A stretch of DNA of 64,000 nt from contig CAZDLU010000008.1 of the NCBI GenBank assembly GCA_964506725.1, positions 73 to 64,072 on the forward strand. The letters run 5' to 3'. The notes beneath the pieces are model-generated. The model was not told the origin of the DNA. It saw only the letters and a list, made by a program, of their open reading frames with translations, and searched no databases. The position numbers and the translations under genes were made by a program. Positions 8,204-62,988 of this stretch are shown here, piece after piece; position 1 is the first letter of the stretch, and each line of letters begins with the position of its first letter. This stretch comes from an uncultured Rhizobium sp. GTDB lineage: Bacteria > Pseudomonadota > Alphaproteobacteria > Rickettsiales > UBA1997.

Positions 8204-8222
8204 AAAATGTTTATAATAATTT

Positions 8223-33326: not shown

Positions 33327-33354
33327 AAATTAAGCTAAATTTTTCTTGATCTTG

Positions 33355-33473
33355 TCATCCTTTCCTTGAGGGATGATCGGTTAACGAAGTGAGCCGAGGA
33401 GGGGATAATTTCCGAGTAAAACCCCTCCTCGAAGCTGTTGCACAGCTTCGATCCTCCCTCAAGGGGAGGATGA
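33355..33473. repeat. RPE-like palindromic element (family 1), intergenic copy
   Basis: 119 bp: tcatcctttccttgagggatgatcgg...gaggagggg...cccctcctcgaagctgttgcacagcttcgatcctccctcaaggggaggatga. Same architecture as the copies at 37423, 40729 and 41780. Confidence 0.85.
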
Positions 33474-33503
33474 TAAGATCGAGGAAACTAATTAAACACA
33501 AAA

Positions 33504-33546: not shown

Positions 33547-35212
33547 AAAAATTTTCTTTAATTTTGGCTTTTGCATAATTAAAAACTTCTGTCGCAGAAA
33601 TTTTTGGTGGCATGAAAAGTTCGTCCGGATCAATCATAACATTTACGATGAAAGGTAATTCGCTGCTGAAAGCCTCGTCCAACGCTGCTTGCAAATATTT
33701 TTCCTCGCGCACCAAAATTCCATCACCGCCGCAAATTTTGGCAAACTCGGCAAAATCACAATTGCGCATGTCGGTTTCATAATCAGGCACGCCGGCTTTT
33801 CCTTCTTGTTCGAGCGTGATTAAACCAAGTTTGGAATTGTTAAAAATGATTATGACAATTTTTAAATTATGTTTTACCGCCGTAATAAAATCAGTCATCA
33901 ACATCGAAAATCCGCCGTCTCCGGTGACGCATATTATTTGTTTGTCAGGATATAAAAGTTTGGCGCCGATAGACGCGCCAAGGCTGAAAGCCATGGTGGC
34001 GAGCGAGCCTGATAAAATATAACGCTGTCCTTTTTTCATTTGTAAATAGCGCGCGTTCCACGCTGTCACAAGTCCGGTGTCAGAAATTATAATCGCATTT
34101 TTATCAGCCGTTTCGCCGATGAGATAAGCCAAGCGCTGTGGTTTTATCGGGTTTGATTTGTTGTTAACGTCTCTTGCAACTTCATTTTGCCAATCACTTT
34201 TATGTTGCTTTATTAGCTGTAAAAAATCTTGATTTGGTTTTTCTTTTATCAAAGGCAGAAGTTGATTGAGAATTATTTTAGCGTCTCCGGCAAGTGCTAC
34301 GTCTAGCGGAATTCTGCGGCCTAAGTGATGCGGATTAATGTCAATTTGAATGGCTTTTTTTTGTGCCGGTAAAAAATCAAAATAAGGAAAATCAGTTCCG
34401 ATCAACATTATCAAATCACAATCTTCCAAGGCTTTGGCACTAGGTTTTACGCCAAGCGCGCCAATTCCGCCAATTGACAAAGGATGATTTTCTAAAAATA
34501 ATTCCTTGCCTTTTAAAGCGTGAACAATCGGCGCGGACAAACGCTTCGCCAGTTCAAATACTTCGTCAACTGCATCATAACAACCAATGCCGCCGACTAT
34601 TACAATTTTGTCGTGATTGTTTAGTAAATCTGTTGCGGCTTTAATGGAATTGGCATTCGCGAGAGTTCCAATTTTTGGCGTTGGTGTAAATTTCCATTTA
34701 TCGGGATTCGGCACTTTTTGACTGGCAATATCAACCGGAATATTTAAATGCGCCACACCGCGATGAGTGAGAGCGGCCTTGATTGCTTGCAGTGCTGCGT
34801 AAGGAAATTGTTCAGCGTTGGTGATGACTTGGTTATAAATGGCCACATCGCTAAATAATTTATGCAGATCAACTTCTTGATGATAATTGCTGCCGATAAA
34901 GCGAGTTTCAACTTGTCCGGTAATGGCGAGCATCGGCGCAAAATCAGCTTTCGCATCATATAAACCGTTGAGAAGATGTATAGCGCCGGGGCCCGCCGTT
35001 CCACAACAAACTCCCAAGTTTCCGCTTAACTTTGCTTGGGCAGAAGCCGCAAAAGCGCCGTTTTCTTCGTGATTCACGTGGACGAATTTTATTTTATCTT
35101 GAAGGCGAATGGCTTCGGTTAGGGCATTGATAGCATCTCCCGGCACACCGAATATTTGGCGCACGCCGGTATCGCTGAGTAATTTTATTAGAACGTCGCA
35201 TACTGTGCTCAT
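33545..35212 (-). CDS. poxB: pyruvate oxidase / pyruvate dehydrogenase (quinone)-like TPP enzyme
   Basis: Collinear with E. coli PoxB as recalled (GVRQIFGVPGD, HEENGAFAASAQAKLSG, GDGGFSMLM, IIFNNSKLG, C-terminal membrane-binding tail). I chose the start at MSTVCDV (35212). The ORF extends to 35248, but those 12 codons lie inside a palindromic element. Confidence 0.8.
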   Translation of the reverse strand: MSTVCDVLIKLLSDTGVRQIFGVPGDAINALTEAIRLQDKIKFVHVNHEENGAFAASAQAKLSGNLGVCCGTAGPGAIHLLNGLYDAKADFAPMLAITGQVETRFIGSNYHQEVDLHKLFSDVAIYNQVITNAEQFPYAALQAIKAALTHRGVAHLNIPVDIASQKVPNPDKWKFTPTPKIGTLANANSIKAATDLLNNHDKIVIVGGIGCYDAVDEVFELAKRLSAPIVHALKGKELFLENHPLSIGGIGALGVKPSAKALEDCDLIMLIGTDFPYFDFLPAQKKAIQIDINPHHLGRRIPLDVALAGDAKIILNQLLPLIKEKPNQDFLQLIKQHKSDWQNEVARDVNNKSNPIKPQRLAYLIGETADKNAIIISDTGLVTAWNARYLQMKKGQRYILSGSLATMAFSLGASIGAKLLYPDKQIICVTGDGGFSMLMTDFITAVKHNLKIVIIIFNNSKLGLITLEQEGKAGVPDYETDMRNCDFAEFAKICGGDGILVREEKYLQAALDEAFSSELPFIVNVMIDPDELFMPPKISATEVFNYAKAKIKENF

Positions 35213-35230
35213 AAATATTTTGTATTTATT

Positions 35231-35329
35231 AAAACCATTCATAGTCATGCTGAGCCTGTCGAAGCATATGTCTCAAGCTCGGAGCGCACCACATGCTTCG
35301 ACAGGCTCAGCATGACTATTAATGGTTTT
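35231..35329. repeat. family-2 palindromic element, full copy
   Basis: aaaaccattcatagtcatgctgagcctgtcgaagcat (35231-35267) and its near-perfect reverse complement atgcttcgacaggctcagcatgactattaatggtttt (35293-35329). Confidence 0.85.
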
Positions 35330-35431
35330 AAATAATTAAATTTTTTGATCTAAATCCATGAGTTCTATTCAAGTTTAAAGTTGAATAAAAAATCAGTTCT
35401 AAAAAATTTGCTAAATATAAAGGAGACATAA

Positions 35432-37288: not shown

Positions 37289-37332
37289 TTATTAAAAAGT
37301 AGCTTGGCCCCTTTTCCAAAAACTCGATCTAT

Positions 37333-37385
37333 TCATCCTCTCCTTGAGGGAGGATCGAAGCTACGCCATTAGCTTCGAGGAGGGG
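37333..37385. repeat. RPE-like element (family 1), partial copy
   Basis: tcatcctctccttgagggaggatcgaagctacgccattagcttcgaggagggg. This is the left terminus and central stems only. Confidence 0.75.
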
Positions 37386-37422
37386 CTGCGATGTAGAATA
37401 CAAATAATTTTTCTCACAATAA

Positions 37423-37538
37423 TTATCCTCCCCTTGAGGGAGGATCGAAGAGCGAAGCGATTCGAGGAGGGGTTTATCTGTGAGACGACCCCTCCTCGAA
37501 GCTGTTGTACAGCTTTGATCCTCCCAAGGGGAGAATAA
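37423..37538. repeat. RPE-like element (family 1), full intergenic copy
   Basis: 116 bp: ttatcctccccttgagggaggatcgaagagcgaagcgattcgaggagggg...cccctcctcgaagctgttgtacagctttgatcctcccaaggggagaataa. Confidence 0.85.
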
Positions 37539-37646
37539 TTAAACCGAGCAACAAGCCCTTCATTTACGCAGTCTCTGACTCGGAAAAGGTGAACATGAAA
37601 TGACAAATTTTTCCGGACATAAAGTAGTCTGACCCTTTTTAAGAAA

Positions 37647-37753
37647 ATATACCAAAACATAAATCTATACTCCTAACCAACTTCGTCTTTTTGGTAAAAA
37701 TTTGCTCGAAAATACTTTGTTGGTTAGGAGTATAGATTTATGTTTTGGTATAT
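37647..37753. repeat. perfect 35-bp inverted repeat with a 37-bp spacer upstream of cyoA
   Basis: Arms atataccaaaacataaatctatactcctaaccaac (37647-37681) and gttggttaggagtatagatttatgttttggtatat (37719-37753). It ends 88 nt upstream of the cyoA start. Confidence 0.85.
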
Positions 37754-38680: not shown

Positions 38681-38695
38681 ATAATTTTTCTCGCA

Positions 38696-38714
38696 CTCCC
38701 CTTGAGGGAGGATG
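38696..38714. repeat. terminal fragment of the RPE-like element in the cyoA-cyoB spacer
   Basis: ctccccttgagggaggatg matches the element terminus and contains the first in-frame ATG (38712) of the cyoB ORF. Confidence 0.6.
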
Positions 38715-40694
38715 ATTATCGAGTTACTTAAATCAAATTTTATGCTAGGAAAACTTACTCTTGAAAACATTCCTTTCGACCAACCAATCATCATGGGCGC
38801 TGTTGCTTTCATGGCTTTAAGCGCTTTCTTCATCATTGCGGCATTAACTTATTTTAAGAAATGGCAATGGTTATGGACGGAATATTTAACCTCCGTTGAT
38901 CACAAGAAAATCGGCATCATGTATATTATTGTTGCTCTTATCATGTTATTGCGCGGGTTCATAGACGCAATAATGATGCGCTCGCAACAGGCTTTAGCAC
39001 TTGGCGCCAATCACGGTTATTTGCCGCCCGAACATTACGACCAAGTTTTTAGCGCGCACGGTGTTATCATGATTTTTTTTGTGGCGATGCCTTTTGTTGC
39101 AGGGTTAATGAATGTGATAGTGCCGTTGCAATTAGGCGCGCGCGATGTGGCTTTTCCTTTTTTAAATTCCGTAAGTTTGTGGTTAAATATAGTTGGTGCG
39201 GTGCTCGTCAATCTTTCGCTTTTCATCGGGGAATTCGCCAGAACAGGCTGGTCAGCCTATCCACCTTTATCGGAACTTACTTTTAGCCCCGATAGCGGAG
39301 TCGATTATTACATTTGGAGTTTACAAATTGCCGGAATAGGAACCTTGCTTACGGCAATAAATTTCTTTGTAACAATAATAAAAATGCGGGCACCCGGTAT
39401 GAAATTTATGGACATGCCGATTTTTTGTTGGAACGCTTTATGCACCAGCATTTTGATTTTGGCGGCCTTTCCGATTTTAACCGTGACGCTAGGTCTGCTC
39501 TCGCTTGATCGCTATCTTGACATGCATTTTTTTACCAATGAATTGGGTGGTTCGCCCATGCTTTACGTCAATCTTTTTTGGGCTTGGGGTCATCCGGAAG
39601 TTTATATTTTAATCTTGCCCGCTTTCGCTGTTTTTTCTGAAGTCAGCGCCACTTTTTCCAACAAAAAATTATTTGGTTACGCTTCGATGGTGTGGGCTAC
39701 GGTAGCAATTACCGTTTTATCTTTCATCGTGTGGCTGCATCACTTTTTTACGATGGGCGCGGGCGCTAATGTTAACGCCTTTTTTGGCATTGCGACGATG
39801 ATTATTGCAATTCCGACGGGCGTAAAAATATTTACGTGGCTTTTTACCATGTATCGAGGCCGCTTGCGTTTGAACACGCCGATTTTATGGACTGTTGGTT
39901 TCATTGTAACTTTTTCAATCGGCGGTATGACGGGTGTATTGCTTGCGATGCCGGGTGCTGATTTTATGTTGCATAACAGCTTATTTTTAATTGCCCATTT
40001 TCATAATGTAATTATCGGCGGCGCGCTGTTTGGCTATTTCGCGGGACTGGTTTATTGGTTTCCGAAAATGTTTGGATTTACGCTAAGTGAAAAGTTAGGG
40101 AAGGGTGCTTTCTGGTGTTGGATCGTAGGATTTTACACGGCCTTCATGCCGCTTTATATTTTGGGTTTTATGGGCATGACCCGCCGCCTTAATCATTATG
40201 ACAATCCGGCGTGGCAACCTTATTTGATTATCGCCGCGGCAGGTGTTGCAATTATTGCAATTGGTATTTTATTTCAAGTCGCGCAACTTGTTTTAGGTTT
40301 TAGAAATCGCCAAAAAAACATTGATGTAACGGGAGACCCGTGGGACGGACGCACGCTGGAATGGTCAACTTCTTCGCCGCCGCCTTTTTATAATTTTGCC
40401 GAAATTCCTTATGTTCATGGGCGCGATGAATTTACTTTTATGAAGGAAAATAAAATCGCTAAACCTATCAACTATCACGATATTCACATGCCGTGCAACA
40501 CTTCTATTGGCTTATTTATTGGCGTTTTTAGTTTTGTTTTCGGTTTCGCCATGATTTGGCATATTTGGTGGATGGCAATTTTGGGCGCGCTGGGAATTTT
40601 GGTTTCGACATTAATTAGAATGTTTGAAAAAAATATTGATTACTATGTGCCCGCCGCAGAAGTGGCGCGCATCGAGCAATTAGGAGGAAAATGA
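38712..40694 (+). CDS. cyoB: cytochrome o ubiquinol oxidase subunit I
   Basis: 660 aa. Heme-copper oxidase subunit I signatures ([48 protein letters not shown]). Alignment to E. coli CyoB (MFGKLSLDAVPF) suggests the true start may be ATG 38742 ([12 protein letters not shown]). Confidence 0.92.
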
Positions 40695-41449
40695 GCAAAA
40701 TTATTTCAATTGAATTTCCACGATTTTCTTATCCTCCCTTTGAGAGAGGATCGAAGAGCGCAGCGATTCGAGGAGGGGTTAATCTCGGAGATCAACCCCT
40801 CCTCGAAACTGCTTACACAGCTTCGATCCTCCCTCAAGGGGAGGATGAAAACCAGCAAGATTTTGAAAAAACACATAATGACGATCACGGCGATGAAAGC
40901 AGAACCGTGCTTGGTTTTTGGATTTATCTAATGACTGACTGCATATTATTCGCCACTTTATTTGCGGTATTTGCCGTGCTAAGAAATAATTTTTTCGGTG
41001 GTCCAACCGGTAAAGAAATATTTGAATTATCTTATGTGTTAATTGAAACAATTTTACTTTTAATTAGCAGCGTAACTTACGGAATGGCGATGCTGGCTTT
41101 TTTTAAACGCGCCAAAAAACAAGTTATTTTTTGGCTGTTGATTACTTTTTTATGCGGCTTGATTTTTGTTTTGATGGAAATAAATGAATTTCATCATTTG
41201 ATTGCAGAAGGCCACGGACCCAGTAAAAGCGCCTTTCTATCAAGCTTTTTTACTTTAGTTGCAACTCATGGTTTGCACGTTACTTTCGGTTTAATTTGGA
41301 TGATCGTTATGATAATTCAGATTTTGCAAAGTCATGAATTTGATACGGTTCTTCGCAAACGCTTGACTTGCCTCAGTTTGTTTTGGCACTTTCTTGATAT
41401 TATCTGGATAGGAGTTTTTACCTTCGTTTATTTAATGGGAGTAATATGA
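40691..41449 (+). CDS. cyoC: cytochrome o ubiquinol oxidase subunit III carrying an in-frame 40-codon palindromic-element insertion
   Basis: 252 aa versus ~204 in E. coli. Conserved core from [14 protein letters not shown] to [21 protein letters not shown]. The start ATG overlaps the cyoB stop (ATGA) and is preceded by aggagg. Residues ~14-53 are encoded by the 120-bp element. Confidence 0.88.
40729..40848. repeat. RPE-like element (family 1) inserted in frame in cyoC
   Basis: 120 bp: ttatcctccctttgagagaggatcgaagagcgcagcgattcgaggaggggttaatctcggagatcaacccctcctcgaaactgcttacacagcttcgatcctccctcaaggggaggatga. No stop codon in the cyoC frame. Confidence 0.88.
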
Positions 41450-41754
41450 AAGAAATTAATGCCGGCACTTTTTCATCTTACATTAGCGGTTTTATTCTTT
41501 CGCTTATTTTAACCGCTTTGCCATTTTGGATTGTGATGCACCCAGAGTTTTCGCGCTCTGTTATAATTGTTGCGATTGTTACTTTGGCGCTAATGCAAAT
41601 AATTATTCATCTTGTTTGCTTCCTACATTTAACTAGCACGCCCGAGCCTTTTTGGAATATTATTTCTTTTATTTTTACGATTCTGATCGTGGCGCTGTTG
41701 GTTGGAGGAACGGTTTGGATTATGATTAATTTGATGAATAATTTGATGCCATGA
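41446..41754 (+). CDS. cyoD: cytochrome o ubiquinol oxidase subunit IV
   Basis: 102 aa, three TM helices. Its start overlaps the cyoC stop, at the conserved operon position. Confidence 0.85.
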
Positions 41755-41779
41755 ATTTATTTAAAGAAGACTTTGTTTT

Positions 41780-41899
41780 TTATCCTCCCCTTGAGGGAGG
41801 ATCGAAGAGCACAGCGATTCGAGGAGGGGTGTGTCTCGGAGGTTAACTCCTCCTCGAAGCTGTTGGCACAGCTTCGATCCTCACTCAAGGGGAGGATAA
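41780..41899. repeat. RPE-like element (family 1) in the cyoD-cyoE spacer
   Basis: 120 bp: ttatcctccccttgagggaggatcgaagagcacagcgattcgaggagggg...ctcctcctcgaagctgttggcacagcttcgatcctcactcaaggggaggataa. Confidence 0.88.
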
Positions 41900-41928
41900 A
41901 ATATCGGGGCTTATTACGAAACTTTCCC

Positions 41929-43392: not shown

Positions 43393-43745
43393 TATGTTTA
43401 CCTTTTTCCTCACGATAAACGTGAAATGAAGAAACGGAGAGAAAATTGCCGAAAATTAAAGAAAATCCGGAAGAATTTGAAGACTAAGATAAACGTGAAA
43501 TGAATATTAAAAAAGCCGCGAAGTCCGCAAACGCAGGGGCTTGGAGAGGAATAAGAAAAATCACTAAAATCCACGAGAGATTTAGTGCGAAATTTTAAAT
43601 GGCGGTGTGGGTGATACCCATTTCGAACTATTCTCACAATTTTTAAAACCTTGATTTACATAGCTCCAGAGGCACTTTTCATATCAACCGGAAAGTTCGA
43701 AAGTGATTCAAGTGAACATGCGGGTGATACCTTTTGCGAACTAAC
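43393..43745 (+). repeat. island boundary repeat, copy A (tRNA-Ser-flank-like unit with pseudo tRNA 3' ends)
   Basis: Contains two ataaacgtgaaatg boxes (43415, 43489), gccgc.aa.tccgcaaacgcaggggcttggagagg, then tggcgg-tgtgggtgatacccatttcgaac (43600-43628) and a second ...gggtgataccttttgcgaac fragment. Alignable to copies B, C and D. Confidence 0.75.
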
Positions 43746-43796
43746 TTTTAGGACGCGTGAAAATTGATCACTGGATGCTCACCAAAAAAAATTAAT

Positions 43797-44405
43797 TTAT
43801 TGTTTTTTCCTTCCCATCCAAACCGTATGTCCCTGACAATTAGGATCTTCTTCTTTATACCTAACTACTTCAAATCCAAATTTTTTAAATAATTCCTGAT
43901 ATTCTTTTTTTGAAAGTGATGCGTGATAAAGATTTTCTCCATTATTATCGCTCCAAATTTCTCCTGCTTCTGGACCGCTAGTAAAAAGGAGGATTCCGCT
44001 CGGTTTGATCTGAGATTCAAAAATTTCAAACATCTTTCTTTGATCATCTTGCGTCAAATGAAAGAAACTGTCCCAGGCAATGATCGCATCAAATTTTTGG
44101 CGCAATTTTATTTTTCTCATATCGGCGAAAATAAAATTTGCATTTGGGAATTTTGCAGGAGGAAATTTCTTTAAAAAAAGATCCATCATTTTTTCGCTAC
44201 CATCAATGCCAGTTAAATCATAACCTTTTTCAATAAAAAATTTAGCAATCGGATCTCCTGCACCGCAGCCTAAATCAAGTATTGAAGAGCTTGTAGGAAT
44301 TGCCTTTACAATTAAATCTAAGTATTCTTTTTCTATCAAATTCTTCGATCGGTTTTGATCAAACCATTCCCCGATTTTATTGTAAGATTCGCAGATTTTT
44401 GTCAT
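43797..44405 (-). CDS. class I SAM-dependent methyltransferase (small-molecule type)
   Basis: 202 aa. Motif I ILDLGCGAGD, post-I LTGIDGSEKM, FDAIIAWDSFFHL. Confidence 0.8.
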   Translation of the reverse strand: MTKICESYNKIGEWFDQNRSKNLIEKEYLDLIVKAIPTSSSILDLGCGAGDPIAKFFIEKGYDLTGIDGSEKMMDLFLKKFPPAKFPNANFIFADMRKIKLRQKFDAIIAWDSFFHLTQDDQRKMFEIFESQIKPSGILLFTSGPEAGEIWSDNNGENLYHASLSKKEYQELFKKFGFEVVRYKEEDPNCQGHTVWMGRKKQ

Positions 44406-44438
44406 AAATTTTTTGTCATAAATAAGTACTGGCTAATT

Positions 44439-45491
44439 TTATTTAACTTTAGAAATCCAGTTTGGATCGCAATTAACGTTATATTTTTCAGGATCAAGAT
44501 TGGCTTTAATCCAAAGACGAAAAGCTATTATAAAGTCCTTATCTAAGCCTCGTAATTCTTTAAAGTTTGGTAAAGTCTTTAAGATAGCGCCAATCGCATT
44601 TTCACGAAGATTCATTGTCACACTATCATCAACAACATTATCCATATGTTTTAGTGCATTGATACAGAACATATCATTAATTTCTTTTCCTATTTCCGGA
44701 ATTGTTTTCTTTGGATCGTTTTCAGACTTGAGAACATAATCGGTAAAGTTTTCTTCCTCCTTATCCTTAATAAGTTGGCATAAAATTACATCAGCTGCCC
44801 CTGCAAGGGTTATTGAAGAAATGAGATCTTGACCTTTGAGAAACAAAATAATTGCTGTTTGAAGCTGGAATTCTGCTAAATCTATAATTTTATATGCTTT
44901 TGTAGAAGTATTTTTATCAATTTGATTTGGTAAAACTTCATGAGGTTTAGCTTTTTGACCATTTTTTTTCTCAAGTTGTTTTATTAACGGTTCATAATCT
45001 TTCATCATTTTTTGACCATCTTTCACTACCCATAAATAATTCAAAAAATTTCTTATGGCAGGCTCATTATCACCATATAGCTTGATGTGGTCGAGAACTG
45101 CAGCAGTAATTGCTTTCTCTGATGCATCTTCCCAATCCATCTCTAATTCATCTGGACAATTTTCCCCCTTATGTCTTAGCGAATAGATTCCAGTAATAGT
45201 TCTGAAGTGATTAATATATTTTGATTTTGAGTGAGCATCGTGCCCAAAAAGTTTTTGAAATAATGTCCGTCCATATTCAAAAAATGACTGCTGACCGCTA
45301 AATTCTAGAATTTTATGAAGAAGTTCTCCTGCTGCTCCAGCTAGAGTAACCGCTGATGGTAAATCTATTCTATTGAGAAATAACCAAATTGCTGTGTGAA
45401 GCTGCTGCTTTGCTATTTCACTTTTACTATAAGTCTTCTCAATATCTGCCCAAGAGTGATTTATTTTTTTCCAATAATCTGTTTCCATCAA
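44439..45491 (-). CDS. hypothetical protein made of two tandem homologous helical domains
   Basis: 350 aa. Half 1 QQLHTAIWLFLNRIDLPSAVTLAGAAGELLHKIL...IYSLRHKG. Half 2 FQLQTAIILFLKGQDLISSITLAGAADVILCQLI...INALKHMD. No family recognised. Confidence 0.6.
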   Translation of the reverse strand: MMETDYWKKINHSWADIEKTYSKSEIAKQQLHTAIWLFLNRIDLPSAVTLAGAAGELLHKILEFSGQQSFFEYGRTLFQKLFGHDAHSKSKYINHFRTITGIYSLRHKGENCPDELEMDWEDASEKAITAAVLDHIKLYGDNEPAIRNFLNYLWVVKDGQKMMKDYEPLIKQLEKKNGQKAKPHEVLPNQIDKNTSTKAYKIIDLAEFQLQTAIILFLKGQDLISSITLAGAADVILCQLIKDKEEENFTDYVLKSENDPKKTIPEIGKEINDMFCINALKHMDNVVDDSVTMNLRENAIGAILKTLPNFKELRGLDKDFIIAFRLWIKANLDPEKYNVNCDPNWISKVK

Positions 45492-45559
45492 TAATTGTTA
45501 ATTAAGTTGCTAGGTGAACTAACCGACAGTTTATCTAATAGAAATCTTCTTTCAATATT

Positions 45560-46100
45560 TGACTAGAAATTCTCTAAATCTCCATTTCACGTTCACCGAA
45601 TTTTGATCACTAATATCAAGGCTTTACACAGTACGATTACAAAAAAATCTCCAATTTTCTCCGCTTTCCTGAGCAAAAAAAACAAATTTTCCAGCAATTG
45701 AAAATTCTCTGAGAAGTTTGCAAAAAGGTTCACCCGCTATGCAGTTATGTTTTCGAACTTTTTTGAGTAGAAGTGACCTAAAGCCAGTATTTACCGATGC
45801 GTACCGTTTTTAAAAAGGTGAACGTGAAGCAAAAAAATAGGGGTAAAAAATGGTAAAATTGAGGGGATTTTGAGAGAAAAATTTAATTTTTCTAACTCAC
45901 GGTGAACATCGATGCAGCTTTGATTTGTAAGGGTTTGTGAGGCTAAAATAGATGAAAAAAAGTAGTGGCGGGGCAGCTGATACAATTTGCGAACCATTCT
46001 CCAATCGTGGAAACCCTTGATTTTATTAGCTTCTCATGCGTACCGAAAAGTTAGAGAAAAATCATCTGGGTGCGGTTGATATAACCTGCGAACTTTTTGC
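45560..46100 (+). repeat. island boundary repeat, copy B (extended ~540-bp unit)
   Basis: Left part atctccatttcacgttcaccgaattttgatcac...; core with ggtgaacgtgaag and tggcgg-ggcagctgatacaatttgcgaacc (45966-45995); right part ...gggtgcggttgatataacctgcgaact. Collinear with copy C. Confidence 0.75.
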
Positions 46101-46187
46101 TGCTTTTGTTAAAAGTGCTCTGAAGCCTTGCTTATACTGGTCATTTCATGTTTACCTTCTGATCGGTTAGAAATTCCAAAACTACGA

Positions 46188-49100
46188 TCAAGAATTTTTA
46201 AACTCTGCCTGATAGTTGCCAGCAATTTTGGATTTTTTATTCAAGATGTAAGAGCCATTGATTTCAAGCCTGCCAAAGTTTCTTGAGTGACCGCCAATCA
46301 TCAATTTTTCACCAATTAACGTCCAAAAAATAGAACAATTATTTTCGTTTAAGAAAGTGCTGAAACTTTTTTTATCGATTAATAATGCTGAAGGATATTT
46401 TTTCTCAAAAATATCTGTAGTGAATGCAATTAAGTTATCTTCTTTATCAAAGAATCTGCCATCAAAATTTTGATGTAGATGCATTCTGTCGATGATCCAC
46501 TTGCAAGGAAGGCTAATTGAGATACCCTTATTCAATGAGTAATCTAAGGAGTTTGAGTAAGAGTCATCAGTTACGATCATTGGAATTTTTGATTCGTTTG
46601 GCTTCACTCCAACATTGTAATCTTCCTTCCTCAAATCTTGAAACGCAGAGTAATCAGGATATTCTCCTAAAAACGTTTCATAAAAAGAGTATGATTCAGG
46701 CATCCATCTTCCATAAAAATTAGTTTTTTTCATCCAGCTAAGCAGATTTTTAGAGTCTTCGTTTTTTACGATATAACTTTTTGTCATGTACCAAAGCTGC
46801 TGAACTGGTACATTATATTTATCGATGATTTCAGGTTGAATCTCGTCTTCCCATTGCATGTAGCTCTCTAGGACTAGCCATTCTTTGCCATTATCATCCG
46901 TAATTGAAATTATATTGGCTGGATTCGGCAAATCTTTTTCATTCCTCATCCATTCGTTATTATTTTTCTTCTTCTGCCAACCTCTGTAACGACCACCTGA
47001 TGATTTCCATTTTGAAAAAGTTACCAATTCTTTGAGGTGATCATCATTTCTTACGATGAATGATGGATCAACGTCTCTTAAATGGGGATGCCAAGGACCC
47101 TTATATTGTTTCTTCGATTTATCCCAATCGTTTCCATTAAATGCGAAATGATCTGATAATAATGCAGTAAATTCGTGATAAGCTATCAGTCGATATTTTT
47201 CCCATATTCTTTCAGAAACATTTTCTGTTTCACTTCCATAATATCTGCCTACCCTTTTATCAAACTCTCCGTGTAAGTCTGGATCATATCCCAATTCTAT
47301 TACTCGGTTAAAAATCCATCTTTTTGCAGTTTCTTTATCAAAAGATTTAAGCGGATCAATTAAATGACCTCGATCATCAAGAAATGGTTCTATCTCATTT
47401 TCAAAGTGATTTTTCTTCGTTGGAGACAGAGATTGTTTAAAGGTTACAAGAAATTTTTTCTGCTTTGTAATTCTTGCTTTCTTTCTTTTATTTTCCGCGA
47501 TTTGAAGGGTTTTTAAATGTTTCTCATCTTTGACGCCTACAAAATTAATTTTAATTTTCGGCATGTCGTCTACCAAAGATAAATTCCAGAACATGGAGTT
47601 TATTGCAGTGCCAAGCAGTTCTTTTTGCTCTTGCGATAAACTCTCTTTAAATTTTTCAAAAAGTTTTTCTCTATCTGGTTCGCCACGATATAATTTTCTG
47701 CTGCTCCAAGCTGATATTTGCATGTGCTTGTCAAAGTCTCCATATCCAGTTATGGAAAACTGCAAATTCGAAAATTTTGAGTTGTCGTCCTTTAAGTTAA
47801 ATTCTTTCTCCAAAAATTGCTGAGTAGGAATTTCGGGCCATTTACTTTTATAGGGAGGGTTAACCTTTTTCTCTAAAATGTTTTTTGGGCAAGTATCGTG
47901 TTTTAGCGCTACCTCGATAATGCCGCGCGCATAATCCCGAAGTAAAATATGTACAGGCGGTCTGTTGCTTTCAAAAATATTTTTATACACCCATTCGGCC
48001 AATTTTTTTAAACCAGCTTTGTTTGATGTATTTCTTAAGGCGCAACCATACGCAACCGCATATAATCTTTCTGCCACATAAGGATCGTTTACTTCTTTAA
48101 ATTCTTCTAAGATTTCAGAAATTAATTCTATTCTGTTATCTAAAATCGAGACCAATCCTTTTGTTGCCTTTCCCCTAACAAGTTTATTTGAGGATGTTAA
48201 GAACCAAGATAATGCTATAGAAACAAGAACTACTGAATCTTCATTTATATTTGATTTATTATGAGGTGACCAAGACCAATCCAACAATCTGCTGACAGCT
48301 TCATGTTCTCCATGTCCATAGTGCAAAAATGATAGCCACCATGAATCTCGCTGAGGCATAGTAAGTTTTGATAAGTACCTATGTAAAAATCTTGCATTAA
48401 ATGGATGATCTTTAATCGGAGAAACCGATAGAAAAGCATTTAATAATTTGTGATGTTCGGACTCTGTTCTGATGTATTTATTTATAATCTTCCTAACTTT
48501 CTCGAAAGAAAAGTCTTTAGGATTTCTCCATATTATGCTTGAGATAAAAGCATCTACAGCAGTACTTCTGAGATAGTCATCTGTCACCAAATACGGAGCG
48601 GCTTCGATGAATTCTATTTGTTGCAATTGCTCTGGGCATTCAATAGATAGAGCCTCGATAATGCCGTGGTTCCATGAGGTAGATATAAATTTTCCAAGAT
48701 CAGTACTCTTTGAAAAAAATGATCTAGCCTGGTTGATAATTTCCGTCCGGTTACGACCTTTATTTGATTTGTCAAATTGAGCCCTATATTGCTTAAAAAT
48801 ATATCTGGCTATGATGTGATCGCTGAATTTCTGAAAAGGAAACCTAACATTAAATTTACCCTTATTCTCGTAGTCTGGAACTCTTGTAATTAGCATGCTC
48901 TTTTCGAGCTGAATAATAAAAGCAGGAATATCATTAATCTCAGGATGGGATTCCTGAATAATTCTTACCAAGTCATCCTCTGGTATTCTGTCTTGATTCT
49001 TCTTAGCCATTTCTTCGGCAATTTTTTCTATCACCGTATCCCAAACAAAATATTGTCCTTTTGTATTTCGTCCTGTTTTTAGCCCTAGCTTCGCAGCAAC

Positions 49101-50381
49101 TTTATCAGCTGCCTCTTTCACGAAAGATTCAAAAATATGAGTTAGCCCAACTTGGCCTCTAAATGGTTTTTTCTTTTTAATTTCATTTACGGTTTTGTTT
49201 TTGAGTTGACCTTGCAGAGGATTATTAAAATCTCTTTTTTTATCCCCAAATGCTTCACAAAATAATAACAGAAAAAGTGGGTTTGTAAATTCTGGCGTTA
49301 AAAGCGGTATCTCCGGCAATGGTATAGAAAATGCCGTAAAAAATTTATTAACCGCTTCCCATTCTTTAAAGTGCAGGCCACGATGCTCTTCTGAAATAAA
49401 CAATAATTTTTGTTCTTCGTTTAAAACTTGGTTTTCAAAACCAGAGCGGATGCTTACAGCCAATGCAACATGAGGATATTTTTTTACTGCCGAAATTATA
49501 GATGAGATATTTTTTTGCCAAAAATCATGAGTTTTTGTTTCGTTTAAAGCATCCACAATTAATAGAGACCGACTCTCACTCTTCTTGCCAAGTTCATTCA
49601 ATTTTTGTAAGAAATGATCCTTATTACTAAAAGTATTACTAAGTCCTAATTGCTCTATAATCTGTAGCCAAACATCACCCTTATCTGAAAAATTTTCGCC
49701 AAATACCAGAATTGTAGGCAAGATTTTATTTTCGTTGCTTACTCTTCGCGCAACTAAATCACAGAATAAGTGTGTTTTTCCATTTCCAGCCGAGCCAGTA
49801 AGTAGTAAGAATTGATTATTTGACAGGCTAGCTTGTGAGCTAGAGGCTAACTCTTTTAAGTTGTTAACTATGCTTTGAGCTGCGTAAGAGTGGTTAATGC
49901 AGGAATTATACTTGCTCTCCAAAGAAGGCCTGTGCCCGTTAGCTATTACCGGCTCAGCTTCCTCATCCTTTTTTATCTGTTCTTTATCCTCCGCTGCCTT
50001 TCTTAGTTCTCTGACAAGTTCCCACGAAGCTTCTAAGAATGATTCTGAAGCTTCAGAAATTTTGTTCCATGGAATGACTTTGGTATTATATTTTTTGACA
50101 CCTGAAAGAATTTCGGATAGTGATTTTAGTCTAGTTCTAACGAGATCATAGTTTTTTTGTATCTCGTCATTTTTATATTTGCTGGCAATGTAATTGACTT
50201 CTTTCAGAAGTTTGCCGTGCTGCTTTCTGATCCTAAAATAAAATTCTTCTGTTCTGCTGATTCCATCAAAAATTTCAGAAATTGGCAAATCAACATTTAG
50301 CTCCGAAGTGTACCTTGGGCCGGCTTTTTGTTTGATTTCTTTTAGATGAGTTCTGTGCCAAATTTTATTATCCATGATCAT
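46188..50381 (-). CDS. giant STAND-like P-loop NTPase with HEAT-like repeats and a large uncharacterised C-terminal region (candidate single-gene defence protein)
   Basis: 1397 aa. Walker A LLLTGSAGNGKTHLF (~aa 194-208), Walker B SLLIVDALNE. A winged-helix-like segment. HEAT-like stretch (NKLVRGKATKGLVSIL...VNDPYVAERLYAVAYG). About 550 C-terminal aa with no recognisable motifs. Confidence 0.7.
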   Translation of the reverse strand: MIMDNKIWHRTHLKEIKQKAGPRYTSELNVDLPISEIFDGISRTEEFYFRIRKQHGKLLKEVNYIASKYKNDEIQKNYDLVRTRLKSLSEILSGVKKYNTKVIPWNKISEASESFLEASWELVRELRKAAEDKEQIKKDEEAEPVIANGHRPSLESKYNSCINHSYAAQSIVNNLKELASSSQASLSNNQFLLLTGSAGNGKTHLFCDLVARRVSNENKILPTILVFGENFSDKGDVWLQIIEQLGLSNTFSNKDHFLQKLNELGKKSESRSLLIVDALNETKTHDFWQKNISSIISAVKKYPHVALAVSIRSGFENQVLNEEQKLLFISEEHRGLHFKEWEAVNKFFTAFSIPLPEIPLLTPEFTNPLFLLLFCEAFGDKKRDFNNPLQGQLKNKTVNEIKKKKPFRGQVGLTHIFESFVKEAADKVAAKLGLKTGRNTKGQYFVWDTVIEKIAEEMAKKNQDRIPEDDLVRIIQESHPEINDIPAFIIQLEKSMLITRVPDYENKGKFNVRFPFQKFSDHIIARYIFKQYRAQFDKSNKGRNRTEIINQARSFFSKSTDLGKFISTSWNHGIIEALSIECPEQLQQIEFIEAAPYLVTDDYLRSTAVDAFISSIIWRNPKDFSFEKVRKIINKYIRTESEHHKLLNAFLSVSPIKDHPFNARFLHRYLSKLTMPQRDSWWLSFLHYGHGEHEAVSRLLDWSWSPHNKSNINEDSVVLVSIALSWFLTSSNKLVRGKATKGLVSILDNRIELISEILEEFKEVNDPYVAERLYAVAYGCALRNTSNKAGLKKLAEWVYKNIFESNRPPVHILLRDYARGIIEVALKHDTCPKNILEKKVNPPYKSKWPEIPTQQFLEKEFNLKDDNSKFSNLQFSITGYGDFDKHMQISAWSSRKLYRGEPDREKLFEKFKESLSQEQKELLGTAINSMFWNLSLVDDMPKIKINFVGVKDEKHLKTLQIAENKRKKARITKQKKFLVTFKQSLSPTKKNHFENEIEPFLDDRGHLIDPLKSFDKETAKRWIFNRVIELGYDPDLHGEFDKRVGRYYGSETENVSERIWEKYRLIAYHEFTALLSDHFAFNGNDWDKSKKQYKGPWHPHLRDVDPSFIVRNDDHLKELVTFSKWKSSGGRYRGWQKKKNNNEWMRNEKDLPNPANIISITDDNGKEWLVLESYMQWEDEIQPEIIDKYNVPVQQLWYMTKSYIVKNEDSKNLLSWMKKTNFYGRWMPESYSFYETFLGEYPDYSAFQDLRKEDYNVGVKPNESKIPMIVTDDSYSNSLDYSLNKGISISLPCKWIIDRMHLHQNFDGRFFDKEDNLIAFTTDIFEKKYPSALLIDKKSFSTFLNENNCSIFWTLIGEKLMIGGHSRNFGRLEINGSYILNKKSKIAGNYQAEFKNS

Positions 50382-50454
50382 ATTTTAAATTACATTCAGT
50401 CTGCAGAATAATATTTTTGTCTAGATTTGGATGCAGGGCAATAAAAAATTCAGC

Positions 50455-51040
50455 AAAATCTAAATAATCTCCAAATCTCCGTTTCATGTACACCGAATTT
50501 TGATCAGCAAAATCAAGGCCTCACATAATATTATTCGTAAAAAATTCTCTGATTTTCTTTATTTCAAAAACATTTCAGCTACACAGTCAGCCCCTCAAAC
50601 AAAAGTTCGCAGGTTATATCAACTGCCACCACTTTGAGAAGTTCGATGAAAAAGCTACGAGACCAGTATTTATCGATGTGTACCTTTTTCACGCGGTAAA
50701 CGTGAAACGGAGAAATGGAGACAAAAATTGCTGAAAAATTGCAAAATTTTGGAAATTTTTCGGGGAGTTTTTGAGCGGAAGGTAAACGTGAAATGTAAGT
50801 CGTAAAATCTGCGGAGCGTTGCCAATAAAGGCGGGATCAGGCGCGTTGAGAATTTTTAAAAATTTACTCGGAGATTTTGGTTCGCAAAAAAAGTAGTGGC
50901 GGTGGATGGGGGTTAGTTTGCTAAATTGGTCGCACTTTTTTGGAATCAGTAAAATCAAGGTTTCAAAGCCATTTTCATCCATACCGAAAAGTTCGATAAA
51001 AATCAGATGCTTTCACCTCAACCACTTTGCGAAACTTCGT
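50455..51040 (+). repeat. island boundary repeat, copy C (extended ~585-bp unit)
   Basis: Left part atctccgtttcatgtacaccgaattttgatcagc...; core gaagttcgatgaaaaa...ccagtatttatcgatgtgtacc...ggtaaacgtgaaac...ggtaaacgtgaaatg...ggttcgcaaaaaaagtag-tggcgg-tggatggggg (50897-); right part ...accgaaaagttcgataaaaatcag.... Confidence 0.75.
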
Positions 51041-51051
51041 AAGGGTTTTTG

Positions 51052-51067
51052 CCGTGAGTTCGAATCT
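51052..51067 (+). repeat. inverted 16-nt copy of the tRNA-Ser T-arm
   Basis: ccgtgagttcgaatct on the plus strand is identical to the T-stem/loop segment of the minus-strand tRNA-Ser at about 62196-62211. The downstream acceptor part is degenerate. Confidence 0.6.
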
Positions 51068-51187
51068 TCCTGCGCTACACAAATTGGACATAATTGGACA
51101 TTTTTGTGGATATTTGCTGATTTGTTAAACCGATTGCCTTATAGTAGCAATATTGCATAAATCGCAATGTTTCTACTATGACATGCA

Positions 51188-51226
51188 TTGACTTTTGCAT
51201 TTTTAATGATATTATAGTCGTATAAT
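51188..51226 (+). promoter_or_regulatory. putative sigma-70 promoter of the abiE operon
   Basis: TTGACT (51188-51193), a 16-17 nt spacer, TATTAT/ATTATA (51210-51216), and a second perfect TATAAT at 51221-51226. It lies 25-60 nt upstream of the abiEi ATG and is flanked by atagtag...ctactat repeats. Confidence 0.4.
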
Positions 51227-51250
51227 TACTATTTTAGCAATTTTTCTACT

Positions 51251-52057
51251 ATGGCAAAGTTTTCAGAATATTTAAAAGACTTAAGAAAATCAGGGCGGCT
51301 TTCTTTCACAGTGGATGAGGCTGCGAGCGATTTAAAGATCTCGAAATATAATGCTTTATCTTCGATATGCCGCATAAAAAAACGCGGAGAAATTATCAGT
51401 CCTGCAAAAGGATTTTATGTGATAATCCCACCTGAACATCAATTGCAGGGTTGTTTGCCTGCAGCAGAATTAGTGCCAATTTTAATGCAGCATTTGGGAG
51501 TAAATTATTATGCAGGCTTGCTTAGCGCTGCAATGTATCACGGAGCAACTCATCAAAAGCCAAATTCATTTCAAGTAATTTCTGATAAGCAAATCCGCAA
51601 AAGTTTAAAATTTGGGCAAATAAGCATTGATGTAATTTACAAAAAATCTCTAGCCAATCTTCCTCTAAAAGAAATTGCTGTTGATAGCGGATATTTAAAA
51701 ATTTCCTCACCGGAACTAACCGCTATGGATTTACTACTTTACCCTGAAAGAAGTGGCGGGCTAAATCATATCGCAACTGTTCTATCAGAGTTGGTGCAAT
51801 CAATTGATCTTAAAAAATTGATCGAGCTGGCAAAAATTTCCAACCAAAAATTCTGGCTGCAAAAATTGGGCTATATCTTGGAAAAAATTGATGTCGAAAA
51901 TCTTGATCAGAAGCAGGAAATCATTAACGGTCTGCAAGATTATCTATCTTCGGATAAAAAACTCGTTGCCCTCGCTCCAGAAATTCCAATTAAAGGTTAT
52001 CCAAGATGTAAGAAATGGATGATTATCGAAAACACTTCAATTGAGAGCGACTTATGA
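51251..52057 (+). CDS. abiEi: type IV toxin-antitoxin system antitoxin, AbiEi family
   Basis: 268 aa. N-terminal wHTH (FTVDEAASDLKISKYNALSSICRIKKRGEIISPAKGFY) and C-terminal AbiEi_4-like region (YYAGLLSAAMYHGATHQ). Confidence 0.85.
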   Translation: MAKFSEYLKDLRKSGRLSFTVDEAASDLKISKYNALSSICRIKKRGEIISPAKGFYVIIPPEHQLQGCLPAAELVPILMQHLGVNYYAGLLSAAMYHGATHQKPNSFQVISDKQIRKSLKFGQISIDVIYKKSLANLPLKEIAVDSGYLKISSPELTAMDLLLYPERSGGLNHIATVLSELVQSIDLKKLIELAKISNQKFWLQKLGYILEKIDVENLDQKQEIINGLQDYLSSDKKLVALAPEIPIKGYPRCKKWMIIENTSIESDL

Positions 52058-52869
52058 TTCCAAAGATTTTTATAGAAAAATGGCAACAAAATGCTCCTTG
52101 GCAAAGCCTTGATATGGTTGAGCAAGACTTAATTATTAACAGGGCTTTGGTAAGTCTTTACCAAAATCAGAAAATTAAAGAAAGCCTGATTTTTCGTGGC
52201 GGAACTGCGCTCAATAAAATTTACCTCAAACCCTCAGCGCGTTATAGTGAAGATTTAGATTTTGTCCAAACCAAAGCACAGCCAATTGGTGAAACAATAG
52301 ACGCTATCAGAATCGCACTTAATTGGCTTGGAGAACCAAACCGCCTTTTGACTGAGCGATCAGCAAAGTTAGTTTACAAATATACTTCTGTTAACGGCCT
52401 ACCGATGAAGCTAAAAATTGAAATTAATACCACTGAGCATTTTCAGGTAATGGATATTAACAATGTAGCTTTTGGTTTTGAGTCGAAGTGGTTTAGCGGC
52501 GAAAGCATAGTTGCGGTTAATCAGCTAGAAGAGCTGATGGCAACTAAGATAAGAGCCTTATACCAAAGACGCAAAGGCAGGGATTTATTCGATCTGTGGA
52601 TGGTCTTCAGTAAAGATTTAGCAAACATTGACGAAACGCTGAAAATTTTCAAAAAATATTGCGAGTATGGTGGGTTAAAAATTTCCAAAGATTTGTTTTT
52701 AAAAAACCTCGAATTGAAGCGCTTAAATAAAGACTTCCAGCTTGATATGAATATTTTGCTGCCCCAAGGGTTTCCGCAAACTTTTCCTATTACTTTTCGT
52801 GAGTCAACCAACTGGAATTTTGATGAGGCTTTTGAGTATGTAACAAGTGAAATTATTAACCGAATTTAA
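52054..52869 (+). CDS. abiEii: nucleotidyltransferase toxin, AbiEii/AbiGii family
   Basis: 271 aa. LIFRGGTALNKIYL...RYSEDLDF motif, KIRALYQRRKGRDLFDL. Its start overlaps the abiEi stop by 4 nt. Confidence 0.87.
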   Translation: MIPKIFIEKWQQNAPWQSLDMVEQDLIINRALVSLYQNQKIKESLIFRGGTALNKIYLKPSARYSEDLDFVQTKAQPIGETIDAIRIALNWLGEPNRLLTERSAKLVYKYTSVNGLPMKLKIEINTTEHFQVMDINNVAFGFESKWFSGESIVAVNQLEELMATKIRALYQRRKGRDLFDLWMVFSKDLANIDETLKIFKKYCEYGGLKISKDLFLKNLELKRLNKDFQLDMNILLPQGFPQTFPITFRESTNWNFDEAFEYVTSEIINRI

Positions 52870-52875
52870 TCGTGT

Positions 52876-53736
52876 ATGAAAAAATCGCTAAAATATCTTC
52901 CGGAATCTAAACAAAACGAATTGCAAAAAATCATTTCTGCAATTCAAAAAACTTGTAAAGATGTTGAGAAGATTATTCTGTTTGGTTCTTACGCGCGCGG
53001 GGATTACAAGGAAGCCAAAGACTTAAAAGATGATAGAAGAACTGGTCACATTTCTGACTATGATATTCTGGTGGTGACAGAAAAAAAGAAATCCACAGAC
53101 AAGTTTTCTTCTTGGAATAAAACAGAAAAACTAAAACTAACCGCACCAGTTAGAGCAATCGCTCATGATATTGAAAGCCTGAATATTAACCTTGCCGAAG
53201 GGCAATATTTCTTTACCGACATTAAGAAAGAAGGTATCTCGCTCTTCGATTCTAAAAAATATAAGCTGGCCAATAAAAGAAAATTAAAACCAAAAGAAAA
53301 ACAAAGGATTGCGCAAGATCACTTTGAGGAATGGTTTAGAAGTGCTGTTAATTTTTTTGATGCGTTTGAATTAATGATGTCAAAGGAGCAATATAAAAAT
53401 GCAGCATTTCAATTGCATCAGGTTGCAGAATCATGCTACAAAACAATTCTTTTGGTTTTCACCAATTACAATCCCAACGAGCATTTTCTATGGATGCTGG
53501 GACAAAGATCTGCCAAATATCACCCTGATCTAAAAACTCTTTTTCCTAAAAAAAATCAGAAAGATAAGGATCGATTTAAGCTACTAGATGATGCTTATAT
53601 TGGTGGCAGGTATGATCCGGACTTTCGAATTTCAAAACGTGATTTGGAAATTTTGGCAAAAGATGTGAAGAAATTATTGGAGCTTACTGAAGAAATCTGT
53701 GAGCAAAAAATACAAAGTTTAATCGAGAAAAAATAA
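52876..53736 (+). CDS. fused nucleotidyltransferase (MNT) - HEPN domain protein
   Basis: 286 aa. N-terminal MNT motif (LFGSYARGDYKE...SDYDILVV). C-terminal HEPN-like helical domain (AQDHFEEWFRSAV...AFQLHQVAESCYK...AYIGGRYDPDF). Confidence 0.75.
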   Translation: MKKSLKYLPESKQNELQKIISAIQKTCKDVEKIILFGSYARGDYKEAKDLKDDRRTGHISDYDILVVTEKKKSTDKFSSWNKTEKLKLTAPVRAIAHDIESLNINLAEGQYFFTDIKKEGISLFDSKKYKLANKRKLKPKEKQRIAQDHFEEWFRSAVNFFDAFELMMSKEQYKNAAFQLHQVAESCYKTILLVFTNYNPNEHFLWMLGQRSAKYHPDLKTLFPKKNQKDKDRFKLLDDAYIGGRYDPDFRISKRDLEILAKDVKKLLELTEEICEQKIQSLIEKK

Positions 53737-57144: not shown

Positions 57145-57145
57145 A

Positions 57146-59502: not shown

Positions 59503-59588
59503 TGAAATTTTTAGCGACTTTTTGCTAAAAATCCGTCTAAAATATTTCCGCTAAGGAAATAATTTTTATTAACAAAACTTTTAAAATT

Positions 59589-59906: not shown

Positions 59907-59999
59907 AAAAAATCATGTGATCATGGCGACAGAATAAAATTATTCTTCTGTCGTCACATTTGAATGAATTATCAATTATAGCAATATCAATTTTTCTCA

Positions 60000-61007: not shown

Positions 61008-61010
61008 AAA

Positions 61011-61822: not shown

Positions 61823-61934
61823 AACTGCAATATAATTAATCTAAATATCCAGAATTATGGATATTCCTAAACAAAAGTCAATATGCGACAAGTTTGCAAA
61901 AAAGTCGGAAACATCACTTGAGGTAGCATAGCAT

Positions 61935-62981: not shown

Positions 62982-62988
62982 TACTAAA

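Follow-up and report, generated by a model that had tools for sequence, protein, structure and literature searches.

A palindromic repeat doublet near the start of cyoC, probably inserted and read in frame, in a freshwater alphaproteobacterial lineage

How does a gene for a respiratory oxidase subunit accommodate a near-perfect palindrome of 120 bp, and do ribosomes read through it? The question is raised by cyoC, which encodes oxidase subunit III, in a 64-kb stretch of DNA from an uncultured alphaproteobacterium (contig CAZDLU010000008.1). This whole stretch is called the window below, and coordinates refer to it unless another piece of DNA is named. The source run is a freshwater metagenome, and the isocitrate dehydrogenase of the window is 74-77% identical to proteins from Alphaproteobacteria and Rickettsiales metagenome-assembled genomes (MAGs). 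A preliminary description of the locus had proposed that the palindrome sits in frame inside cyoC, adding 40 residues in the manner of the Rickettsia palindromic elements (RPEs). We consider it probable that a non-autonomous convergent doublet, similar to RPEs and to repetitive extragenic palindromes (REPs), inserted about 30 nt into cyoC in this freshwater alphaproteobacterial lineage. The features on which the argument turns are these:

40682..40687, plus strand: cyoC Shine-Dalgarno sequence AGGAGG, within the 3' end of cyoB
40691..41449, plus strand: cyoC open reading frame (ORF), 252 codons in one uninterrupted frame, with Pfam and NCBIfam CyoC matches
40691..40720, plus strand: ancestral first 10 codons, aligned to MIKNNAIKFP (L003) and MTKNTPIQLP (L001), two pieces of DNA that carry related cyo operons
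40718..40778, plus strand: left module, comprising terminus CACGATTTTCT, hairpin P1, hairpin P2 and tail GAGGAGGGG; 69.1 bits with model R1 of the repeat, full-length match
40729..40848, plus strand: 120-bp core palindrome, near-perfect, read as residues 14-53
40779..40795, plus strand: spacer of 17 nt between the modules, no stop in the cyoC frame
40796..40859, minus strand: right module, inverted; 62.9 bits with model R1
40907..40909, plus strand: GTG (Val73), the sole in-frame ATG, GTG or TTG between the element and the conserved core

The identity of the gene is supported by full-length model matches and by its place in a cyoABCDE operon, in which Pfam shows cyoA, B, D and E. Pfam COX3 covers CyoC residues 73-250, the NCBIfam CyoC model TIGR02842 scores 271 bits against a cutoff of 224 over model positions 1-180 of 180, and all 59 columns that are invariant across 52 homologues are retained. 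The cyoA-E proteins are 66-83% identical to their L001 counterparts, with which they share the gene order. The cyoC ATG (40691-40693) overlaps the cyoB stop TGA (40692-40694) as ATGA, within ggaggaaaATGA, and the cyoC stop in turn overlaps the cyoD ATG. The conserved core begins late, with COX3 from residue 73 and the LGFW motif of the window CyoC aligning with E. coli residue ~27. No in-frame ATG lies between the element and this core, and the GTG at 40907 follows GATGAAAGCAGAACC, which is without a GGAG-type motif; the codon at this position is GTA in L001 and GTG in L003. On these three counts, the overlapping start, the late core and the lone GTG without a Shine-Dalgarno sequence, the preliminary description was borne out.

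Comparison with orthologues lacking the element locates the insertion. Among the matches listed, the 119 other CyoC homologues span 198-216 amino acids, as against 252 in the window, and the closest of those listed, P0002 (85% identity, from L003) and P0003 (80%, from L001/L002), are both of 215 amino acids and encoded in cyoABCDE operons. They share with the window the stop/start coupling and the first ten residues, M.K...I.(F/L)P, and the element-free L003 has the identical GGAGGAAAATGA start arrangement. When the junction was aligned by hand on codons, Pro10 was found to be followed by GEYSLYAPK in P0002/P0003 and by 47 residues in the window CyoC. The addition is in frame, as had been claimed, while the net gain over the two closest orthologues comes to 37-38 residues rather than 40. 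A PGEYS(L).APKP motif is conserved in several more distant CyoC proteins, and therefore, judging from the alignment, a small, conserved motif at the N-terminus was hit by the element and either replaced or scrambled.

An unfiltered model search recovered no repeat modules from the L001 and L003 DNA (21.8 kb), and the L001 gaps at the sites of window copies are short, with 4 nt between the Glu_synthase-like and TPP-enzyme genes and 77 nt between cyoD and cyoE. On this basis all window copies appear to be lineage-specific gains. When a genome of the same species was sought, carrying the insertion or not, none came to light; protein identities did not exceed 85%, and metagenome DNA gave no match. 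The orthologue alignment proposed earlier thus shows, by sequence comparison, an insertion specific to the lineage and lying downstream of a start codon that is conserved and translationally coupled, with both frame and core kept.

The element itself is a doublet of two inverted modules of ~61 nt, which as RNA folds with -80.7 kcal/mol (z = -9.8 against shuffles). Forty-two aligned copies define the module as a terminus CTCGRTCTAAT, a hairpin P1 (ATCCTCCC-CTTGA-GGGAGGAT), a hairpin P2 (CGAA-GA, a variable stem-loop, then GA-TTCG, with the tandem GA/GA internal loop conserved) and the tail GAGGAGGGG, so that terminal inverted repeats are present (CTCGRTCTAAT / ATTAGAYCGAG). Across these copies 98% of cells are paired, compared with 38-61% in slid controls, and 5 of the 12 pairs have changed on both sides, a level reached by 0 of 500 shuffles. 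Because the hairpins are kept by compensatory changes, the family appears to be under structural constraint.

How the element meets cyoC is less sharply drawn. On the left an extension of 9-11 bp is possible, as CACGATTTTCT (40720-40730) matches the family terminus CTCGRTCTAAT; it could be that terminus or else a remnant of GGCGAATATTCGCTT. The junction CGATTTTCT may likewise be an element terminus or a remnant of GAATATTCG(CTT). On the right, the outer terminus of the module is degenerate or truncated relative to the family consensus GATTAGAYCGAG, and other copies from that metagenome have loose ends that run on into TTAGATCGAG. The codons of residues 14-53 span 40730-40849, one base off the palindrome at 40729-40848; the peptide had been given correctly, its being encoded exactly by the palindrome had not. 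The core length of 120 bp is a multiple of three and the cyoC frame is free of stops, both of which can be read directly from the DNA as described before. In the same frame each of the three sibling copies in the window holds one stop (a TGA or TAA in the spacer of those at 37423 and 41780, a TGA in the left arm of that at 33355), against none in the cyoC copy. Open frame/orientation combinations amount to 5 of 18 among the siblings and 12 of 84 across full-length copies. A promoter and terminator scan around the element gave nothing above shuffle expectation.

The siblings and further relatives in the window are the following:

33346..33483, unstranded: sibling doublet between the Glu_synthase-like and TPP-enzyme genes
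37323..37385, plus strand: solo module (half-copy) upstream of cyoA, 63.3 bits with model R1
37414..37548, unstranded: sibling doublet upstream of cyoA, 118-bp core with a 2-nt deletion
38690..38722, unstranded: mini-palindrome CTCGCACTCCCCTTGAGGGAGGATGATTATCGAG in the cyoA-cyoB gap, P1 hairpin with both termini
41776..41903, unstranded: sibling doublet between cyoD and cyoE
4939-4987, upstream of icd: variant palindrome (CCCTCACCCT...CTCTCTCAAGGGAGAGGGTGAGGGG), weak R1 match of 13.7 bits

A 31-mer from the element recurs three times in the window (0 expected), and these matches, together with the repeat families, reproduce the copies already reported at 33355, 37423 and 41780; an unfiltered covariance model search added three relatives that had been missed, at 37323-37385, 38690-38722 and 4939-4987, the last consisting of a P1-like hairpin with the G-rich tail on one side and the complement of that tail on the other. 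The four copies (cyoC, 33355, 37423 and 41780) are 78-88% identical in pairs. Since they differ by 12-22%, the insertion is not brand new and its frame has been kept over a non-trivial time; one intergenic sibling has the 2-nt deletion, and the frame of the cyoC copy is intact.

Five clear places of the family occur in the window, all within 8.6 kb (33.3-41.9 kb) around the cyo operon, a clustering with a probability of ~0.002 under a uniform model by a post hoc estimate. The cluster sites are upstream of cyoA (two places), between cyoA and cyoB, inside cyoC, between cyoD and cyoE, and one 4 kb upstream; outside the cluster there is only the 13.7-bit variant. In the cyo operon, every junction that offers room carries a repeat copy, and the one inside cyoC lies as near the gapless cyoB/cyoC junction as coupling allows. 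As a separate observation at the cyoA-cyoB site, the cyoB start chosen by the ORF finder (ATG 38712) falls inside the mini-palindrome, and an E. coli-like start lies 10 codons downstream, at about 38742; the ATG at 38712 may owe its existence to the mini-palindrome and be a spurious or an alternative start of cyoB.

Beyond the window, a census of the repeat recovered 158 modules in 84 pieces of DNA, mostly from Rickettsiales- or Alphaproteobacteria-labelled MAGs and freshwater metagenomes. Nearly all modules are paired as '+ then -' doublets, the spacer measuring from 2 to about 170 nt, while a minority stand alone, and modules occur in both orientations relative to genes; the full-length copies in the first 35 DNA pieces are nearly all intergenic and closed in all six frames. 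An exact 19-mer of the arm is present in 32 stretches among 185,579 species genomes, exclusively in MAGs with mostly Rickettsiales or Alphaproteobacteria labels, and UBA2645 alone accounts for eleven of these. The same 19-mer occurs in 55 stretches of metagenome contigs, mostly freshwater, and in no viral contig, and none of 72,556 plasmids matched the element by blastn. Module pairs flanking an ORF were absent from the DNA pieces searched, a consistent target-site duplication was not seen, and no related insertion sequence (IS) was found in the window. We also observed many repeat copies in lake MAG records titled 'Rickettsia typhi' (L004, L010, L016, L017, L023 and L025). R. typhi is described as devoid of such repeats (PMC3733652), and these titles look like mislabelling.

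The census of DNA, reaching short diverged inserts that lie below the reach of peptide searches, uncovered the family in frame in three other genes, belonging to other uncultured bacteria, congruent with the RPE-like survival inside ORFs that had been suggested. QueA (L008/L037 902-958) has 15 extra residues, PSSKSQATSILPQGE, from an in-frame module; RarA/MgsA (L039 2113-2175) has an in-frame module of 20 residues; and the acetyl-CoA synthetase Acs (L058 2558-2669) contains a complete spacer-less doublet of ~37 residues between two aligned blocks. Each of the queA, rarA and acs insertions is an extra loop relative to a solved homologue. The peptide motifs PP(L/F)E(G/R)GSKS and SILPQGED recur in the coding copies including that of CyoC, and therefore the same reading phases recur. 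Two more cases, in L061 and L086, are doubtful. The clear coding cases thus number about 4 among the 158 modules (roughly 90 element sites by manual count), meaning that the fraction of the family lying in ORFs is low. Longer Icd homologues (511-545 amino acids) were also considered as repeat insertions and were ruled out, being due to low-complexity linkers. The L039 RarA has, in addition, a second unexplained insert at residues ~96-118.

Which known systems does the family resemble? RPEs (RPE-1 to RPE-10; Ogata et al. 2000, 2002, reviewed in PMC10969869 and PMC1779305) are described as having in-frame copies in unrelated housekeeping genes at sites tolerated by the fold. The window family is likewise palindromic, of 100-150 bp, interspersed, both intergenic and coding, without an encoded transposase, found in frame at tolerated positions of functional genes, and hosted by Rickettsiales-affiliated alphaproteobacteria. 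It differs in having only ~4 clear coding cases per 158 modules, whereas nearly half of the copies in the reviewed RPE families are coding, and in its module doublet with variable spacers, which is not described for RPE-1.

That the element does not belong to a recognised RPE family, as the preliminary description supposed, agrees with all searches made. An NCBIfam search at E <= 10, run with no positive control, returned no match for the CyoC insert frames or the sibling frames, the queries being CyoC, two forward frames and one reverse frame of the cyoC copy, and one frame each of the 41780 and 37423 copies; NCBIfam presumably holds domain models for RPE1-RPE5. An exhaustive phmmer search, in which the 47-amino-acid insert was compared with 1.84 billion representatives, yielded no more than 6 matches, each weak or repetitive, and the concatenated two-frame peptide had no match in a word index of 5.8 billion proteins. 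Named Rickettsia genomes gave no match to the 19-mer in what is an exact-match test only, the four 'Rickettsia typhi'-titled records being MAGs. As far as tested, by protein models, peptides and an exact 19-mer, the family therefore appears not to be an RPE.

The REPs and their composites, bacterial interspersed mosaic elements (BIMEs) and REP doublets forming hairpins (REPINs), offer a structural parallel. The alphaproteobacterial REPs with a CGTC tag, RPE-4 and RPE-6 among them, have 8-9-bp stems starting A-T, 4-5-nt loops and head-to-head dimers (PMC3733652). In the window family, P1 has an 8-bp stem starting A-T, T-A and a 5-nt loop, the modules form mostly head-to-head doublets with some solo, and occasional copies lie in frame within genes, contributing 20-40 residues, as in CGTC REPs. 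In contrast to the CGTC and GTAG REPs, the family has no CGTC, TGTC, CCTC or GTAG tag and no CCA tail, its stem being preceded by AAT(C/T) and followed by CGAAG; it adds a second hairpin with the GA/GA loop and a 9-nt G-rich tail, making the module about twice the size of a REP. REPIN systems have a REP-associated tyrosine transposase (RAYT), encoded by a single-copy gene that the repeats flank; none was seen in the window ORFs scanned. Miniature inverted-repeat transposable elements (ERIC, Correia, QMITE1; PMC10969869) are similar as small non-autonomous palindromes sometimes in frame with host ORFs; no target-site duplication or IS-like termini with a cognate transposase were identified for the window family. 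Taken together, this is apparently an undescribed repeat family of a known kind, the protein-coding palindromic repeats already known from Rickettsia.

We then consider what the cell would make of the insert. The ancestral ATG, the AGGAGG and the first ten codons are intact and no stop intervenes, and therefore ribosomes should start at ATG 40691 and continue through the element into the CyoC core; in the centroid fold the cyoC Shine-Dalgarno sequence and AUG are unpaired. The part of CyoC that receives the insert is the N-terminal tail, which precedes transmembrane helix 1 and is poorly conserved. The insert is hydrophilic, rich in Pro and Gly and devoid of a hydrophobic stretch. The N-terminal tail of oxidase subunit III is cytoplasmic. 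In the AlphaFold model of the window CyoC, the predicted local distance difference test (pLDDT) is below 50 at residues 1-11 and 19-64, residues 1-66 are without secondary structure, and the core is confidently modelled as five transmembrane helices, at residues 67-96, 114-138, 142-172, 181-213 and 219-251. One deposited E. coli chain, 8f68_C, begins 4 residues before its FGFW motif. In the Thermus caa3 oxidase (2yev) subunit I precedes the subunit III homologue in a fused chain, which argues that extra polypeptide at the N-terminal end of subunit III is structurally tolerated. It is thus most likely, on these models, that the insert amounts to ~38 extra disordered residues on an unbroken enzyme, and that it is tolerated rather than useful, being selectively near-neutral.

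The course of events that we propose is the following. A palindromic doublet, built like REPs, BIMEs or REPINs and behaving like an RPE, would have landed ~30 nt into cyoC; ribosomes would start at the coupled ATG 40691 and traverse the element in frame; and the product would be a CyoC whose five-helix core is unchanged and which carries ~38 additional residues, disordered and hydrophilic, the selfish DNA persisting at a site that tolerates it. Spread of the family would be mostly into intergenic and operon-junction sites. Its hairpins may be conserved as a recognition structure for a mobilising enzyme, by analogy with REP and RAYT, the mobility mechanism being conjecture.

Several points weigh against this proposal. 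First, 120 bp is the canonical length of the subfamily and already a multiple of three, making frame preservation weak evidence; we rejected the length as a strong argument for translation for this reason, and only the absence of stops counts. Second, the element borders are fuzzy on the left and on the right and a target-site duplication is not fixed, and no transposase or RAYT (Y1_Tnp) was found in 46 of the 47 window ORFs of at least 110 amino acids (15708-16928 being left out). Third, the family resembles REP/BIME doublets more than the strongly ORF-invading RPE-1. As regards expression, the sequence occurs in only three runs, all of them DNA metagenomes in the form of contigs, a hairpin of -80 kcal/mol in the mRNA could delay ribosomes or be a target for RNase III, and a start at Val73 would retain everything resolved in the E. 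coli structures, making a working subunit possible. Finally, the two contigs of the source run in the Logan collection that cover the element overlap by 23 nt only, inside the repeated arm.

The alternative that retains most weight, and one compatible with the insertion that we favour, is that the host has recruited the module as a structured signal, in RNA or DNA, for instance in the processing or stability of operon mRNA; the module would then be a relative of whalefall-1 rather than purely selfish DNA, and the cyoC copy would be under selection for this role. Whalefall-1 (RF01762) is an orphan non-coding RNA motif from a single metagenome (Weinberg et al. 2010, PMC2864571), with a hairpin CUCUCC-UUGG-GGAGAG, a second variable hairpin and then a G-rich tail, a layout that the modules share; the difference is that whalefall-1 has been presented as a non-coding RNA and not as a dispersed repeat. 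It is the sole Rfam family that repeatedly matches modules, with 27.9 bits at L009 4862-4915, 24.7 bits at L025 5909-5962 and 18.9 bits at window 40795-40848. These scores are all below the gathering threshold of 37; at gathering thresholds Rfam finds nothing in the window but one tRNA. A host signal would also fit the compensatory changes in both hairpins, the conserved tandem GA/GA loop and the placement of all 5 clear places around the cyo operon. Hairpin conservation is, however, equally expected of a transposase recognition site as in REP/RAYT, and the use of both orientations relative to genes speaks against such a signal. We regard recruitment by the host as unlikely. The relationship to whalefall-1 may be viewed separately: the orphan 'RNA' may be related to a dispersed repeat. 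It is a tentative possibility that the module is a structured element, unrecognised before and dispersed widely among uncultured freshwater alphaproteobacteria, and is homologous to whalefall-1, whalefall-1 then being a REP-like mobile repeat, or the repeats being expressed, host-used RNAs at operon junctions, with the coding copies as a second independent origin of protein-coding palindromes outside Rickettsia/Wolbachia. As an aside, L009, from a Rickettsiales MAG, also contains a different, perfect palindrome of ~130 nt (3634-3797) with spurious miRNA and sRNA model matches, probably of another repeat family.

Could the functional CyoC instead start at GTG 40907, leaving the element as a structured leader or intercistronic insert (a stabiliser, processing site or attenuator) and the read-through from ATG 40691 as incidental? 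The completeness of a Val73 product relative to the E. coli structures would permit this, and Di Nocera et al. (PMC3733652) argue that REPs at the 5' end of an annotated ORF are mostly non-coding. Furthermore, the copies in the cyo operon sit in true intercistronic gaps, of which cyoB/cyoC offers none. Unlike in the cases of Di Nocera et al., however, shorter CyoC homologues confirm the upstream start: the ATG, the AGGAGG and the first 10 codons have conserved counterparts in orthologues without the element, and no stop occurs before the core. The GTG, lacking a Shine-Dalgarno-like sequence, is replaced by GTA in L001, and the cyoC copy is, unlike its three siblings, stop-free in exactly the frame used. 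An internal start appears quite improbable in light of this.

That the insertion damaged cyoC, with the hairpin blocking translation or the mRNA being cleaved and the subunit heading for loss, is very unlikely. The great stability of the hairpin and the disappearance of the GEYSLYAPK motif conserved in the clade speak for such damage; yet cyoC has neither stop nor frameshift, all invariant residues are kept and the neighbouring cyo genes are intact, while the 12-22% divergence of the copies represents time for decay that did not occur.

As to the assembly, independent Logan contigs of the source run cover 40300-40842, comprising cyoB, the cyoC start and both arms, and 40820-41500, leading into the core, with contig depths of 9.6x and 9.7x. 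Both insertion junctions are real, and a larger hidden insert between the arms is unlikely. An artefact, by which a repeat was mis-joined into cyoC at the repeated arm, would account for the break of the contigs inside the element and for the ~10-fold rise in k-mer depth at that arm, but is extremely improbable given the equal depth on both sides, the collinear, in-frame cyoC sequence on both flanks and the absence of an empty-site contig among the Logan contigs of the source run.

The window has further features unrelated to the family under study. A second, sequence-unrelated repeat family (CATGCTTCGACAGGCTCAGCATGAC) occurs at 8171-8212, 35211-35349 and 62953-62994, with a palindrome of 60-nt arms at 35211-35349, and an AT-rich palindrome with 45-nt arms, 91% complementary, separates the repeat copies from cyoA at 37647-37753 and may represent a further mobile repeat or else a hairpin with a regulatory function. 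Direct-repeat families of 54-86 nt, extending over 43414-62048 (at 43414, 45563, 45817, 50460, 50638, 50695, 61935 and 61993), flank a 1397-amino-acid ORF (46188-50381) and a defence and copper-resistance block, and may mark the borders of mobile islands. That block, at 51251-59502, is a defence cluster (AbiEi/AbiEii, HEPN-nucleotidyltransferase, N6/N4 DNA methylase) followed by copper-resistance genes for a P-type ATPase, a multicopper oxidase and CopB. A 979-amino-acid MutS-like protein (23950-26889) has the unusual architecture of MutS domains I and V with a weak C-terminal match to a GIY-YIG nuclease. Within the 811-amino-acid ORF at 21245-23680, which has no Pfam match, a 100-nt direct repeat of 95% identity (21644-21743 and 22823-22922) probably gives the protein internal repeats.

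In-frame palindromic repeats in essential genes are a textbook curiosity, resting mainly on Rickettsia. The freshwater family, unrelated in sequence, adds four coding insertions that are independent of one another, including one in a respiratory complex of the membrane. This suggests that in-frame survival arises generally, as a side effect, when REP-like repeats land in disordered stretches of protein that tolerate them. Genes of this sort could be treated wrongly by gene callers and by quality filters based on length, and model R1 can be used to mask the repeats or to take their census in MAGs. The possible link to whalefall-1, finally, offers a testable explanation for an orphan RNA motif.

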